Below are positions 26,056 through 30,498 of a stretch of DNA of 37,620 nucleotides, piece after piece (the stretch's first letter is position 1; each line of letters opens with the position of its first letter). The stretch lies in IMG/VR virus record IMGVR_UViG_3300025000_000248; one strand, given 5' to 3'. The DNA is from a virus. The translations under genes were made by a program, and so were the position numbers. The notes beneath the pieces were generated by a model. That model had not been told where the DNA came from, did not search any database, and worked only from the letters and a program-made list of their open reading frames with translations.

Positions 26056-27026
26056 TGTATACCCCTTAATTAAACAAGGTAGCCAAGGTGTACAATATCT
26101 TGGCTACCTATTTGCGACCTTTAGGGTAAGTCGCCCACCCCAGTAATTATTAAGCATGTCGTTAGTGCGTGCATGCCCAGAGTTTCATTAACGCTAGAAA
26201 CTCTCTGAGTACTACTGAAAACTCATAAACTATGCGACCGTTAAAGGACAACGGTGAGTCCTAGGGATGAACAATAGAGCTTGATCAGAGCTGTTTCTGT
26301 CCCTACTCACAATACTAGAACATCTAACATATTCCATTAGGTAGCCACCTGAAGACTGCTTATACCTAGTACTATGAGTAAGGACAGTGTGGGAATTCTA
26401 CCCACGTTGGTAGAGTGCACTCCTGCCAACCGAGTCTAACAACTGTACTTACCTCAGCTTTGTCATACATGGGACTAATACCCAACGGATGGTTCCCATT
26501 GTGCTAGGCAGCTACCCCTCTCACACAGTTTCGAGTAACGGACTAAAACTGTCCAGAACCAACAACACTCGTAAACAAACGGCACTGTTTTTGACAGGGT
26601 ATGCTCCCCCTGTTAGAATAAAAAGAATTTAGCCATGCACATGTGATACACTACCCTAAGGTTGCTACTCACAATCATAAATGCTTGCTTTATCCACTTC
26701 TACTCTAATCCACACACGCTGTGTTATAATGATGCTAACAGATCATCATAAGCCAGAAACAGCACACAGGGATTAAGGTAGAATTAGGGGCCAGAGACAG
26801 GACTTTATACCTGCATTCCTCACGCTTTTAGGCATGTGCTTTTGGATTAAAGCTACTCTGGCATGTAAAATGAGGGCATAGATTTGCACCATGCACACCC
26901 TGCTAGTTTTCGGTTTACCTTGTGATCAGCCCTTACCCCACCTTAAACAAGTATGGTACCATTAAGGTTTCTTGCACGACTTGTTCACTCTAAAGCGTCT
27001 ATCCATTCCGCCACCCCACAGAATAT
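26056..27026. other. About 970-bp ORF-free segment (no ORF of 60 aa or more in six frames) with balanced GC and many local stems: candidate structured ncRNA(s) or degenerate tRNA-like elements. It begins with the palindrome GGTAGCCAAG-11 nt-CTTGGCTACC (26078-26108).
   Basis: Absence of ORFs in the six-frame track plus visible stems. Confidence 0.4.
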
Positions 27027-27281
27027 TTAACTGCTACCTAAACGTCTTTTGGCCTCTTCCAGAATTTCAATAGCCCGGTCAGCGTCATCAGATATACTCT
27101 CTATCAAACCCGCCATCCCTGAATTAATTGGCCTAGCTACTGCCCCCTCCGGATTGGGGTGTATAGAATGCAATACCATGAAAGAAAGTTCAGCTAAACG
27201 AGATACCTTAGCTTCTAGAGACTGTAAACTTGACCAAATTGAGTCCTCAGAAACACATTTCGCAACAGAATTCATATTCAT
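27027..27281 (-). CDS. Hypothetical protein (start refined to MNMNSVAKC with GAAGGAGG ribosome-binding site, which avoids overlap with the tRNA)
   Basis: ORF with ribosome-binding site. Confidence 0.45.
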   Translation of the reverse strand: MNMNSVAKCVSEDSIWSSLQSLEAKVSRLAELSFMVLHSIHPNPEGAVARPINSGMAGLIESISDDADRAIEILEEAKRRLGSS

Positions 27282-27307
27282 TATATTTCCTCCTTCAAGT
27301 ATGTAAT

Positions 27308-27384
27308 TGGTAGGCCACATAGGATTTGAACCCATGACTCCCGAGATATAAGCTCGGTACTCTAACCAACTGAGTTAGTGGCCT
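27308..27384 (-). tRNA. tRNA with anticodon UAU (Ile, AUA-reading) and encoded CCA
   Basis: Folded by hand. Acceptor AGGCCAC/GTGGCCT is 7/7, D arm ACTC/GAGT, anticodon arm CCGAG-CTTATAT-CTCGG, T arm ATGGG-TTCAAAT-CCTAT, 3' end ACCA. Confidence 0.7.
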
Positions 27385-27388
27385 ATTA

Positions 27389-27463
27389 TGGCGGCAAGGT
27401 GTAGGGATCGCACCCACGTTAAGAGTTTTGGAGACTCCTGTTCTACTACTGAACTAACCTGCC
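27389..27463 (-). tRNA. Probable tRNA-Trp (anticodon CCA) with encoded CCA and atypical T arm
   Basis: Acceptor GGCAGGT/CCTTGCC is 6/7, D arm GTTC/GAAC, anticodon arm GGAGT-CTCCAAA-ACTCT. T loop is TGCGATC (G55, unusual). Confidence 0.5.
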
Positions 27464-27832
27464 ATTTGCAGTTAGAGTGAGTTTCGCTTGACACAGCTAC
27501 TACTCACCCTTTTCCACCTAGGAACTGAATAACACAAGGTGTCAGTTTATAAAGATTGCCGTCCCCCTAGGCTAAGTCAGTTGCCCTGCGTGGTTCTACT
27601 GACAATGTACGGATAGTTCCTTCTCAGTTCCAGTTTCGTCGTTTACTGCTAGCAACTATCAAGCGTTAACTCTCGCCCTATTATGGCGACAGCACGTCAT
27701 TAGGGTAAACCTAGAGCTTGTGGCCCTAACCAACTCCATCGCTTTGTGAATGTCTACGGGGGACTAGCCTGTGCAAGACGCTTGAAGTCATGGAGTTGGG
27801 TAGGGGCATATGCCCCTTGAACTATCTGCTTA

Positions 27833-28726
27833 TCACTTCGCTGCAGGTAGTGGTAAACTTATCATATTGTTTCCGCCAGAAACCATAGACAATTTACCAT
27901 CCCAGTGTAATGCAAGCTGGTACTGAATCAGCTCTGGAGTTATAGATGCTTGTAGCAATTTATTAGAATTAGCTTCTCCAGTAGCTTTTATAACAGAAGC
28001 ATCTGCTATACCTTGGGCATCCACTCTAGCCTTGTTAGCGGTAACTGTGGATTGTGTTAATTCAATCTCCATTTGTTGGAGCTTTTGTTGAGCATCCACC
28101 TTAGCTTGAATAGCTTTCATGGTATCTTCGTCCGGCCTAATTTCTCCAAATGAAAATGTTTCAACCTCTAGGCCAAAGGGTGTCAAGTCTTTGATCAGTA
28201 TTGCATGTATTTTTTCTTGGATTTCTGTACGCTTGTTTCCGTAAAGGTCAAGAACACTGTAGCTAGATGTTACGGCCTGGGATGCAGTCTTTACTTGCTG
28301 CTTGAGGTATCCCGACTGTATGCTCTCAATGTCTGCACCTTTAAAACGATTAAATATTTCCGGTAATTTGTCCACATTAGCGTGGTAAGTAAAATATGCG
28401 TCAACTGATACCGGCTTACCCTCCATTGTGGAGGTATTATAGGAATCATCATTGGGAGAACCTTCTGTCTTAGCCTTAGTTAGCCATACAGTTTCGGTTG
28501 AAACTGGGTATTCCCTAACACTCTTCCAAGGGGCTACTGGGTGCACCCCTTGACCTAACGTGACATCTTCCAGCCCCCCACTCATGTTGTAAATGACCCC
28601 AGCATGCCCTGGATTAACCTTTGTTGTGCAAATTACCCCCAGAATTAGAAGTATTAGCATCCCCACTACTGTTAGAATCGCTCCCTTTGAAAACTTTGGT
28701 AACCCCAGATCTAGATTTCTCCTCAT
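27833..28726 (-). CDS. SPFH/band-7 (prohibitin/HflK/C/stomatin-like) membrane protein
   Basis: N-terminal TM, then VNPGHAGVIY...FGLEV...TMKAIQAKVDAQQ...ANKARVDAQG pattern. AAGGGAGGAAA ribosome-binding site. Confidence 0.8.
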   Translation of the reverse strand: MRRNLDLGLPKFSKGAILTVVGMLILLILGVICTTKVNPGHAGVIYNMSGGLEDVTLGQGVHPVAPWKSVREYPVSTETVWLTKAKTEGSPNDDSYNTSTMEGKPVSVDAYFTYHANVDKLPEIFNRFKGADIESIQSGYLKQQVKTASQAVTSSYSVLDLYGNKRTEIQEKIHAILIKDLTPFGLEVETFSFGEIRPDEDTMKAIQAKVDAQQKLQQMEIELTQSTVTANKARVDAQGIADASVIKATGEANSNKLLQASITPELIQYQLALHWDGKLSMVSGGNNMISLPLPAAK

Positions 28727-28871
28727 TGTTTAACATTTCCTCCCTTAAATAGGAGGACACCCTGTCCACTCCCCCACCTAACCTTTTAAATAAAGGACTC
28801 AGCGCAAACCATATAAGTACAAAAGCGAGAACAATAAGTATTGGAATAGCTGGCATTATGAACAATGGCAT
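28614..28871 (-). CDS. Small membrane protein overlapping the SPFH gene start by about 113 nt in another frame (NfeD-like partner?)
   Basis: Very hydrophobic N-terminus. The overlap makes the exact extent uncertain. Confidence 0.35.
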   Translation of the reverse strand: MPLFIMPAIPILIVLAFVLIWFALSPLFKRLGGGVDRVSSYLREEMLNNEEKSRSGVTKVFKGSDSNSSGDANTSNSGGNLHNKG

Positions 28872-28877
28872 CCCTCC

Positions 28878-29035
28878 TTAATGTATGTGCAAAGGGTAGG
28901 CTAGGAATCGAACCTAACTTCAACCGCCACTTATGTGTAGTAACTGATACTCCCAAGAGAGTATGTAGGAGTCGAACCTAACTTCAGAGCCTCTCACATA
29001 TAGTAGTTGCTACCCTTAACTATGATACCAGATTG
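28878..29035 (-). tRNA. Two tandem tRNA-like elements sharing TGAAGTTAGGTTCGA(C/T)TCCTA T-arm motifs. Full cloverleaves could not be resolved by hand.
   Basis: Canonical GGTTCGANTCC T-loops on the minus strand at about 28895-28905 and about 28968-28977. Acceptor pairing was not found. Confidence 0.3.
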
Positions 29036-29255
29036 TGGGAATTGTAGAAGGCTGGTGATAGAGATCCTTACGCATAAGGACTTATTATGCCATACACTTA
29101 ACACTTTCACCCACCACTGACTAGGTCCAGCTTAAAATAGTACTCATGTTGTCTAACATGATTCCTCGCCTACCAAGCCGTCCTACTTAACGCTGTACAA
29201 CATTTATAGGCCCAATTCTTCTCGGCTTTTCACTGGGCAGTCGCTAGACTGCTTA

Positions 29256-29459
29256 ACCTGGTATCATAATTAAAGGTAGGCATATGCCTCCCAAGATAAA
29301 TATGCGGGGGTAAGGATTTGCACCTTACATGATAGGAGTTTACCCTCGATTAAGCCTATCCCTCTGTCTGCAACCCTCTTAAGGACTTAGGTTTATTTAT
29401 GCAAACAATCGGGAGCGTCTACCTTTTCCGCCACCCCTGGTATCATAATTAAAGGTAGG
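29256..29459. repeat. 24-bp direct repeat CCTGGTATCATAATTAAAGGTAGG at 29256-29279 and 29436-29459, plus an inverted near-copy at 29009-29032
   Basis: Seen in sequence. Confidence 0.8.
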
Positions 29460-29525
29460 AAGTCGGTGGAATCTCACCCTCCAAGGTTTGCACCTTTGCG
29501 TATTCACTACACTACTTCCATATGT

Positions 29526-29602
29526 TGGCAGTACATACAGGAATCGAACCCGTGTTACTAGCTTGACAGGCTAGCGTCCTATAACCCCTAGGAGAACGTA
29601 CC
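29526..29602 (-). tRNA. tRNA-Asp (anticodon GUC) with encoded CCA
   Basis: Anticodon arm CTAGC-CTGTCAA-GCTAG, T arm ACGGG-TTCGATT-CCTGT, acceptor GGTACGT/ATGTACT (2 G-U pairs), 3' end GCCA. Confidence 0.65.
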
Positions 29603-29609
29603 AAGTTAA

Positions 29610-29951
29610 TTAGAATATCTTGTTAGACAGAGTAGCATTTACCTCAATAAGCGGTAGCCCACCTATAAGGAACTTTATAATTCCCTCTAACTGACCATCT
29701 TCATCTAAGATACTGCATATACTGCCGGCACTAGAGCATCCATAGATAACTGTGTTTGTGCTGTTAGCAACATAGCCAACTTTGTCTAGGTTTTCCATGT
29801 ATATGGCAATTGCTTCAGTATCAAAAGGATTATCCCTTTCTCTAACAAGCTTAACTTTTGCACCTAGTTTAAAGATACTTGTTAAAGAAGAACCCTCAAA
29901 TACTCTAGGATTACAACTATTAGCCACTACCATATTTACATATTTAACCAC
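29610..29951 (-). CDS. HIRAN-domain-like protein
   Basis: ...GAKVKLVRERDNPFDTEAIAIY...KVGYVA resembles the HIRAN G-x-V-x-L-x-REP-x-N-x-YD-x-NAI signature. Confidence 0.45.
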   Translation of the reverse strand: MVKYVNMVVANSCNPRVFEGSSLTSIFKLGAKVKLVRERDNPFDTEAIAIYMENLDKVGYVANSTNTVIYGCSSAGSICSILDEDGQLEGIIKFLIGGLPLIEVNATLSNKIF

Positions 29952-30498
29952 ATTGTCACCACCATTCTGTTAGTTATTGATGAGCACTTGTGGGCTTTCC
30001 ACCCACTCGTCGGTTTGTGGCTTATAAGTCCACCATAACTCGTCTCTTACGTCAGGTTGGTTACTGACAGCCTTACGGACTACACTCAGTTAGCCTTTAC
30101 ATCAGGGGAGTGTAGCGTTATTTTGTCCACGAACTATCGAACTACTGTCTTGACCACATGGGCATTTTAGGGCTTGCACATAGGCATAGTTGCTTAAGCT
30201 CAACTTAGCTCTTTGACCTGCAACCACAGGCTACAGAGTACCTATATAGCCTTTCTCGGGCAGTAGTTCTCTTTATGCTCTACTATGAAGCACCTAATCC
30301 CTACACCTCTGTGCTTCGTGCCACGTATCCCGACACAACGTGGTTCCCCTCGAATATCCTTGGAAGGTTCAGAGGGAGTCAGGAGGTCTACTAAACATTT
30401 AGTGTGTCAATAAAACACTCCTCTGCTTTTCGTCCTCACCGTCGTGCCCCTGAACACTTTGAAAAAACCACCCATCCAAAAGTTTTCTCTTGTTAAGC
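29952..30498. other. About 550-bp ORF-free segment between the HIRAN gene and the sigma gene: candidate structured ncRNA
   Basis: No ORF of 60 aa or more; GC-balanced; several inverted repeats. Confidence 0.35.

Follow-up and report, generated by a model that had tools for sequence, protein, structure and literature searches.

We examined a 37,620-nt stretch of viral DNA (IMG/VR record IMGVR_UViG_3300025000_000248), referred to below as the window, and focused on positions 26,056 to 30,498. This 4.4-kb island carries three transfer RNA (tRNA) genes, four small protein genes and a series of long blocks, here called A to E, that lack open reading frames (ORFs). Every gene of the window lies on the minus strand. 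Outside its protein genes, the island is genuinely non-coding and contains conserved structured RNAs outside known families, with helix covariation on the sense strand and a tRNA-like architecture. An earlier, sequence-only reading of this DNA, made without database searches, had proposed that the long ORF-free blocks are novel structured RNAs and had listed large non-coding RNAs, degenerate introns, tRNA-derived elements and regulatory leaders as candidates. The blocks did prove non-coding, conserved, structured and without a known family, and much of them is tRNA-derived; the intron and leader versions did not hold up.

ORF-free blocks and tRNA genes of the island

ORF-free gaps were defined as stretches of more than 300 nt that are free of minus-strand ORFs of at least 50 amino acids (aa), and the whole 37.6-kb window was scanned. 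The only internal gaps are those of the island (26056-27026, 27336-27832, 28957-29609 and 29952-30498); one further stretch of this length, 1-678, is located at the window edge. Within the blocks, ORFs reach 47 aa at most, and the guanine plus cytosine content is 0.43-0.47 (window mean, 0.41), in agreement with the earlier description of blocks without an ORF of 60 aa or more and with a content of about 45%. The three tRNAs that had been folded by hand, with UAU, CCA and GUC anticodons, were recovered by both ARAGORN and Rfam (Table 1), and each has the canonical 7-nt anticodon loop with U33 and a normal T loop. An ARAGORN run with introns and a low threshold returned spurious calls only. Protein genes are few, as had been noted, but they number four rather than three: an 84-aa ORF (ORF84), an SPFH gene, a small ORF and a HIRAN-domain ORF.

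For comparative analyses we used L010, a syntenic 141.9-kb IMG/VR contig (the same as L036 and L037) that has ORF-free blocks in common with the window. Reassigning TGA, TAG or TAA, one at a time, opened no long frame across the blocks. Between the two phages, codon position 3 accounts for 94 of 154 mismatches in the flanking sigma factor gene and for 166 of 315 in the SPFH gene (period-3, p about 1e-12), and the sole indel in these two genes is 6 nt long. Mismatches in blocks A-D have a flat phase distribution (p 0.46-0.87; 0.46 in block A), and the indels there are of 1, 2, 4 and 35 nt. Because there is no recoded frame, no period-3 pattern of substitutions and no restriction of indels to multiples of 3, we conclude that the blocks do not code for protein. 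Sequencing error is excluded, since more than 10 independent groundwater assemblies are 99.9-100% identical across the island. L029 seems to lack 170 nt, but this apparent loss is a run of Ns at a scaffold gap.

Conservation and folding of the blocks

Third codon positions of the SPFH and sigma genes are 52-56% divergent between the window and L010, and the identities of the individual elements are given in Table 1. The segment between blocks A and B, the 3' remainder of block E, tRNA-Trp, a linker (26407-26523) and the terminator sequence are unalignable or absent in L010, as is the region upstream of block A, where identity is 45%. Block B is 10.7% divergent, compared with 29% at the third positions of the adjacent small ORF (Fisher p 0.007).

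For block B, with a structure predicted from the window sequence alone, 19 of the 26 changed pairs were kept in L010 (8-15 in slid controls), and six of seven double changes were compensatory. In an RNAalifold structure all 21 variable pairs were standard, a test that is circular by construction. Domain I of this block is enclosed by helix H1 (22-25 bp), in which 29257-29280 is paired with 29010-29034. The four variable pairs of H1 all stay paired, via G-U intermediates only; because the variation runs through G-U pairs, H1 is meaningful only as RNA on the minus strand. Three compensatory pairs were found in helix 7 of domain I, and another three in the covarying hairpin of the B tail (helix 15). 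Block B folds at -127.8 kcal/mol in the sense and at -102.1 kcal/mol in the antisense orientation, and the L010 version of the B tail has a z score of -4.43.

The 5' strand of H1 is a 24-nt repeat, CCTGGTATCATAATTAAAGGTAGG, which is exact (100%) at 29257-29280 and 29436-29459; these copies, R2 and R1, flank the element X2. The inverted partner, at 29007-29034, is imperfect (88% complementary over 25 nt). This is the 24-bp sequence that had been described as present twice directly and once inverted.

All blocks are more stable than dinucleotide shuffles, with z scores of -2.25 (A), -3.56 (B), -2.27 (E) and -4.63 (C3-D). In both phages, the sense (minus-strand) RNAs of B, C and D fold 15-40 kcal/mol better than their antisense counterparts. 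Independent folds of the two phages gave the same helices from different sequences in a B-tail hairpin (AUACUCU/GGAGUAU in the window and CGCCCUC/GAGGGCG in L010), D1, a block-E hairpin and the terminator-like hairpin. Block A contains a 9-bp helix, GAACUACUG/CAGUAGUUC; its loops vary and its stems are kept between the phages, with little true covariation. The structures suggested for A and C rest on this pattern of kept stems and varying loops, together with a few local compensations. RNAduplex predictions between blocks were uninformative.

tRNA-like elements

Six matches to a strict T-arm motif were found in the 37.6-kb window, all of them on the minus strand inside the island; 0.06 are expected from shuffles. 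Three of the six are in the tRNAs, and three are in X2, X1 and the B tail. At least six elements of the island are tRNA-like, namely Y, X2, the B tail, X1, C2 and a Trp-like half; the sequence-only reading was right that non-canonical elements with T arms exist and had counted two. A T-arm-like hairpin is present in all of these elements and an acceptor-like stem in most, and each lacks both a 7-nt anticodon loop and an encoded CCA. The CCA is encoded in all three window tRNAs and in the tRNA-Met of L010. By their coordinates, every protein cistron and every large domain are bounded by a tRNA or a tRNA-like element.

The Rfam tRNA model gave no match for X1, X2, Y or the B tail, and it matched C2 at 29.4 bits (RF00005; gathering score, 29). 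C2 has a 6-nt anticodon loop (CUAAAA) and an 8-nt T loop without UUC. The mini-cloverleaf of Y has a minimum free energy of -20.5 (z -2.72) and makes up 51% of the ensemble. X2, a paralogue of X1, has an irregular hairpin of about 70 nt in place of the anticodon arm, and X1 shows one compensatory pair relative to L010 (GCAAG/CUUGU to GCAGG/CCUGU). In the B tail, 64 nt separate two T arms, GGUUCGACUCC and GGUUCGAUUCC; between the end of the tail and the start codon of the small ORF lie 21 nt. The Trp-like half of L010 has the same architecture as that of the window, with compensatory stem changes.

Two GGTTCGANTCC T loops 38-60 nt apart were also observed in at least 120 IMG/VR viral loci (L042-L161), mostly as a tRNA followed by a 3' fragment. 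We discarded this double-T-arm pattern as a family, since the matches are heterogeneous and mostly of that tRNA-plus-fragment type. One locus (L082, 4450-4690) contains two acceptor-plus-T-arm minihelices that ARAGORN did not call.

Table 1. Features of the island, listed in the direction of the minus strand, and their nucleotide identity to L010
Feature	Position	Strand	Identity to L010	Description
Sigma factor gene		minus	71.5%	flanking gene
Promoter-like element	30461-30498	minus	76%	directly after sigma stop codon; AAGAGA-N17/18-TTTTTTC
Block A	29982-30280	minus	86% (core, 29974-30174)	structured RNA of about 300 nt, closed by GAGCAU/GUGCUC
HIRAN-domain ORF	29610-29951	minus		variable cargo gene; HNH_3 endonuclease ORF in this slot of L010
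tRNA-Asp(GUC)	29526-29602	minus	absent	ARAGORN and Rfam, 40.3 bits; canonical, CCA encoded
Y	29458-29519	minus		62-nt mini-cloverleaf; 6-bp acceptor-like stem and three short arms; window lineage only
R1	29436-29459	minus		additional, identical copy of the 24-nt 5' strand of H1
X2	29303-29437	minus	absent	tRNA-Leu-like; class-II D arm GCG-GAAAAGGUAGA-CGC; T arm UAAGG-UGCAAAU-CCUUA
Block B domain I	29010-29280	minus	87%	multi-hairpin RNA of about 220 nt inside helix H1
Block B tail	28893-29015	minus	92%	tRNA-like three-way junction; acceptor GGGUAG/CUACCC
Small membrane ORF	28614-28871	minus		protein-coding, in cistron with SPFH gene
SPFH/Band_7 gene	27833-28726	minus	65%	protein-coding; cistron 27833-28871 bracketed by tRNA-like elements
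Block E	27467-27832	minus	70% (5' part)	5' 124 nt common to L010; 3' 242 nt lineage-specific with tRNA-derived fragments
tRNA-Trp(CCA)	27389-27463	minus		ARAGORN and Rfam, 44.6 bits; canonical, CCA encoded
tRNA-Ile(UAU)	27308-27384	minus		ARAGORN and Rfam, 64.0 bits; canonical, CCA encoded
ORF84	27027-27281	minus		84-aa ORF; only in two phage lineages; no assigned function
X1	26870-27019	minus	93%	tRNA-Leu-like; D arm of tRNA-Leu type; hairpins replace anticodon region; UGCAAAU T loop
C2	26789-26862	minus	97%	cloverleaf tRNA-like RNA; z -3.65
C3, C4 and variable linker	26431-26788	minus	76% (C3), 65% (C4), 35% (linker)	C3 a long hairpin with conserved base and variable tip
tRNA-Trp-derived 3' half	26389-26430	minus		anticodon stem closed by UGCA tetraloop, then T arm
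D1	26297-26387	minus		23-bp near-perfect helix; 21 bp of different sequence in L010; z -3.83 and -6.54
D2	26134-26296	minus	81%	conserved multi-hairpin 3' domain
Terminator-like hairpin	26078-26108	minus		11 bp, z -5.49, then U-rich tail UUGUUUAAUU; end of island

Ends of the island and block E

SPO1 middle promoters have the consensus AGGAGA-N17-18-TTTNTTT, and we take the promoter-like element at the start of the island to resemble them; its counterpart in L010 reads AGGAGA-N18-TTTTTTG. At the other end, the long stem noticed in the sequence-only reading is indeed a stable hairpin (Table 1), which a simple terminator scan did not call, its loop being longer than 8 nt. L010 has a different hairpin followed by UUUUU at the same position.

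The common 5' part of block E comprises a hairpin, GGGGCAUAUGCCCC, a long covarying hairpin and a hairpin beginning UAGGGCC. Strain variants L028-L030 carry four clustered A/T-to-G changes in the block-E hairpin region (27770, 27782, 27788 and 27790), at least one of which turns an A-U pair into G-U. In block C, the plus strand contains an antisense match to a sigma-A promoter (26591-26619; 11/12, extended -10 TG), which is not conserved in L010 and is possibly a chance match.

Source phage and relatives

The island is flanked by genes for DNA ligase, a gene-33-like ORF and a 179-aa sigma factor (gp34-like) that is about 50% identical to the sigma factors of Bacillus phages SPO1L1, CampHawk and SP82G. 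Ligase, gene 33 and sigma follow one another as in CampHawk, in which dense coding follows the sigma gene and no island is present at that position. By its sigma similarity and this gene order, the source phage is a relative of SPO1-type Herelleviridae, and the island is an insertion after the late sigma gene. We regard the source as a lytic, uncultivated SPO1-like (Herelleviridae-type) phage of Bacillota from groundwater.

A third lineage with the island was not found in protein-seeded, 19-21-mer DNA and double-T-loop scans of IMG/VR or in metagenome and genome scans; sigma homologues of at most 56% identity were not traced into their contigs, since the sigma genes of IMG/VR relatives at 47-49% identity are followed by dense coding. 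L041 was rejected as a relative because it shares a single chance 19-mer match. The island had no blastn match in INPHARED, nhmmer searches with every block against all collected loci gave no match beyond L010, and a homologue search with ORF84 returned two protein clusters only.

The slot between blocks A and B is occupied differently in the two phages. L010 has an HNH_3 homing-endonuclease ORF there (1959-2399; L036, 2380-2820), and the window has the HIRAN ORF, tRNA-Asp, Y, R1 and X2, which looks like cassette exchange at a hot spot. In addition, the SPFH protein of the window is nearer to those of the island-less phages L001-L009 (75-78% aa identity) than to that of the syntenic L010 (63%), which indicates mosaic recombination inside the island.

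Several other features of the window were recorded. An 842-aa protein (19440-21968, minus strand) contains a Major Vault Protein shoulder and Vault_3 repeats (PF11978, 6e-26); besides this vault-domain protein, a cage-type SPFH protein is encoded within the RNA island. A 15-nt tandem repeat, CATCCAATGCTAATT, spans 2018-2277 (17.3 copies, 95% matches), with overlapping ORFs on both strands. A family of near-consensus sigma-A promoters on the minus strand (3866, 5390, 7890, 11248 and 12119) has a common C-rich spacer (TTGACTTCTCCCCC...TGATATAAT); these are probably early promoters.

Comparison with known RNAs

Rfam was searched at the gathering score and at E<=10, with the whole island and with sub-regions. 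At either setting it returned tRNA and chance matches only, with no group I or group II intron, transfer-messenger RNA (tmRNA), RNase P, signal recognition particle (SRP), 6S, riboswitch, T-box, GOLLD or ROOL. The Infernal check for introns, 6S-like and tmRNA-like RNAs suggested by the sequence-only reading thus yielded nothing but tRNA. Among the chance matches, Plastid-ycf2 corresponds to the antisense of a tRNA and BSnc120 to the terminator region (29.5 vs 114 bits). A tRNA-like domain with a tag frame, as in tmRNA, was found by neither ARAGORN nor Rfam, and B and the X elements were dropped as candidates for SRP RNA, RNase P RNA, 6S RNA or tmRNA for lack of an Rfam or ARAGORN match. An assignment by eye of block A to group I R/S elements also failed, as the order was wrong and there were no model match and no exons.

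By analogy, the closest known kind of RNA is that of the large RNAs near phage tRNA islands, and the likeness is one of genomic context. GOLLD and ROOL adjoin phage tRNA islands, tRNAs sometimes lie within an RNA linker, and the 3' region of GOLLD is conserved while its 5' region or linker is variable (PMC12286853, PMC5737381). The blocks of the island are likewise long, ORF-free and structured and are located in a phage beside tRNA genes, and C3-D2, like GOLLD, is conserved at its ends and variable in the middle. However, the island matches neither of the two Rfam models, including when short inputs were searched at E<=10, and its RNA consists of several smaller domains (200-650 nt), is rich in tRNA modules and occurs in two lineages only.

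A second comparison is with phage K (Kayvirus, Herelleviridae), in which RNA-seq revealed two abundant long non-coding RNAs (lncRNAs), lnc001 and lnc002, beside its tRNAs (PMC9241854). We found that ORF-free stretches of 635 and 1154 nt in phage K adjoin tRNA-Met and tRNA-Asp/Phe/Trp, on the tRNA strand, with an annotated terminator inside each. The two systems have in common the broad phage group, a gp34-type sigma factor and ORF-free RNA beside tRNAs; the phage K lncRNAs are abundant by experiment, whereas those of the island are predicted RNAs. Searches of the island against lnc001 and lnc002 with nhmmer and blastn gave tRNA matches only. The 3' end of the phage K lncRNA by tRNA-Met (L163 833-969; NC_005880 13632-13768) matches Rfam DUF3800-I at 43.4 bits (gathering score, 44.2).

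tRNAs punctuate mitochondrial transcripts, and tRNA-like 3' handles are known from other RNAs, e.g., mascRNA/MALAT1. Similarly, the boundaries of cistrons and non-coding RNA domains in the island all carry a tRNA or tRNA-like structure, at which cleavage may occur; some of the handles, however, have weak acceptor stems. We know of no demonstration of such a tRNA-punctuation mechanism in a phage. Species 1 and 2 of phage T4 (rnaC/rnaD) are small stable RNAs co-transcribed with and processed from the phage tRNA cluster. The island domains are much larger, and the likeness is one of description, with homology not expected.

A possible RNA operon

We consider the chances about even that the island is a minus-strand RNA operon from which cuts at tRNA and tRNA-like handles release mRNAs and tRNAs along with stable structured RNAs. 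Its co-transcription, the processing enzymes, the stability of the RNAs and any molecular function are what we infer. A single polycistronic transcript would run from, probably, the middle-promoter-like element at 30461-30498 to the terminator-like hairpin at 26078-26108. It would carry the three decoding tRNAs and the cistrons of four small proteins, together with six or more handles of tRNA origin and stable folded domains of about 300 nt (A), about 270 nt (B domain I) and about 650 nt (C3-D2). RNase Z is the Bacillus enzyme for CCA-less tRNA precursors. Each handle would be cut on its 5' side by host RNase P and, where CCA is lacking, on its 3' side by RNase Z, and RNase III may cut the 21-25-bp helices H1 and D1. 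By analogy with the phage K lncRNAs, GOLLD and ROOL, the released large RNAs would be the functional product. A further proposal, which we put forward only tentatively, is that A, B domain I and C3-D2 represent one or more undescribed classes of large structured phage RNA, matured by handles derived from the phage's own tRNA genes and with a job like that of GOLLD and ROOL.

A number of observations weigh against an operon of functional RNAs. Only two lineages carry the island, and the covariation statistics are weak for this reason. When covariation with L010 was examined, in line with the sequence-only reading's suggestion of homologous phages, pairs were kept in block B, but the global minimum-free-energy structures of A and C had pair support no better than slid controls. 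Some 40% of the island is lineage-specific, namely Y, X2, the rest of E, tRNA-Asp and tRNA-Trp. The third positions of ORF84 are merely 13% divergent (10/75) from L010, and the patch of ORF84, X1 and C2 may thus be younger or recently exchanged; identity in the patch of ORF84 and block C may reflect such exchange and not selection. X1 and C2, at 5.5% divergence, are marginally below the ORF84 third-position baseline (Fisher p 0.04). X1 and X2 have weak acceptor stems of 4-6 bp. The promoter assignment is also weak, as similar matches recur about every 2 kb.

Alternative explanations

The most serious alternative, in our view rather unlikely, is that a tRNA array is decaying at a hot spot of recombination. 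The island would then be the wreckage of duplicated tRNA genes and spacers, in which turnover of endonuclease and cargo genes leaves ORF-free DNA without a function of its own, and its similarity to L010 would reflect recent ancestry or exchange. Many pieces are visibly tRNA-derived, pairs of a tRNA and a 3' fragment are common in viral contigs, and the A-B slot holds different cargo in the two phages (HIRAN and tRNA-Asp vs HNH). The lineage-specific share, the recent-looking ORF84 patch and the failure of A and C to exceed slid controls in kept pairs point in the same direction. Other observations argue against decay. Divergence in the conserved cores is far below that of the third codon positions nearby, and the damage to the tRNA-like elements is non-random, in that only the anticodon loop and CCA are lost while a T-arm-like hairpin is retained in all and an acceptor-like stem in most. 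Moreover, compensatory changes maintain helices, folding is specific to the sense strand, and the core of A, domain I of B and D2 have no tRNA resemblance.

It is improbable that the blocks are instead cis-regulatory leaders or untranslated regions, with B as the 5' leader of the small ORF and SPFH gene, A as the leader of a cargo gene and C-D as a 3' untranslated region. This is plausible for block B only. The end of the block lies 21 nt ahead of the small ORF, the two are conserved jointly, and alternative structures can form, since GGGUAG can pair either with an upstream CCUACC (in R2, and in R1 in the window) or with a downstream CCUACCC. The genes that follow block A in the two phages are unrelated, the blocks exceed the typical length of leaders, and none matches a riboswitch, T-box or leader family. 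C-D, about 1 kb long, follows ORF84 and is separated from the next gene by the terminator-like hairpin, whose position is kept in L010; a regulatory leader for the downstream structural block, as put forward in the sequence-only reading, is at odds with this arrangement.

Still less probable, and in our judgement very much so, is a mobile element, either a self-splicing intron in which A and B are group I halves around an HNH ORF, or a transposon resembling a miniature inverted-repeat transposable element (MITE) made of H1 and the repeats. Group I introns that carry HNH genes are plentiful in Herelleviridae (PMC10383478), and the L010 HNH_3 ORF is placed between A and B as an intron ORF would be. 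However, neither block matches Intron_gpI or a group II model at E<=10, and no interrupted gene or conserved exons were found: the sigma gene ends at its own stop codon, and upstream of A the two phages cannot be aligned. Each of the two blocks is closed by a separate helix, and the slot that holds the HNH gene in L010, and in L010 only, contains a functional tRNA in the window. The degenerate introns of the sequence-only reading are rejected on the same grounds. As for a transposon, H1 resembles 25-bp terminal inverted repeats and R1 is a third copy, but the G-U variation of H1 fits RNA only, and no further copy of the H1 unit occurs in the window or in any collected locus. Finally, disrupted or recoded protein genes, including the frameshifted or error-disrupted genes considered in the sequence-only reading, have nothing in their favour beyond the lack of annotation and are effectively refuted, the recoding, period-3, indel and assembly tests all being negative.

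Implications

If the island were a mere tRNA graveyard, it would still record rapid turnover of cassettes downstream of an SPO1-type late sigma gene. If, on the other hand, its large domains do form a class of structured phage RNA, they might, for example, assemble as RNA alone or sequester a translation or tRNA-processing factor during infection, and the tRNA mimics without an anticodon would not be pseudogenes but a system exapted for processing or as decoys. The large RNAs known from beside phage tRNA genes (GOLLD, ROOL and the lncRNAs of phage K) are abundant, in some cases cage-forming and still unexplained, and the island would be an unrelated set of RNAs in the same genomic niche. The conversion of tRNA genes into anticodon-less structural modules at cistron boundaries would suggest a route for the production and maturation of such RNAs by way of RNase P and RNase Z. 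The island would also provide a second, independent data point on why phages pair big RNAs with tRNAs.

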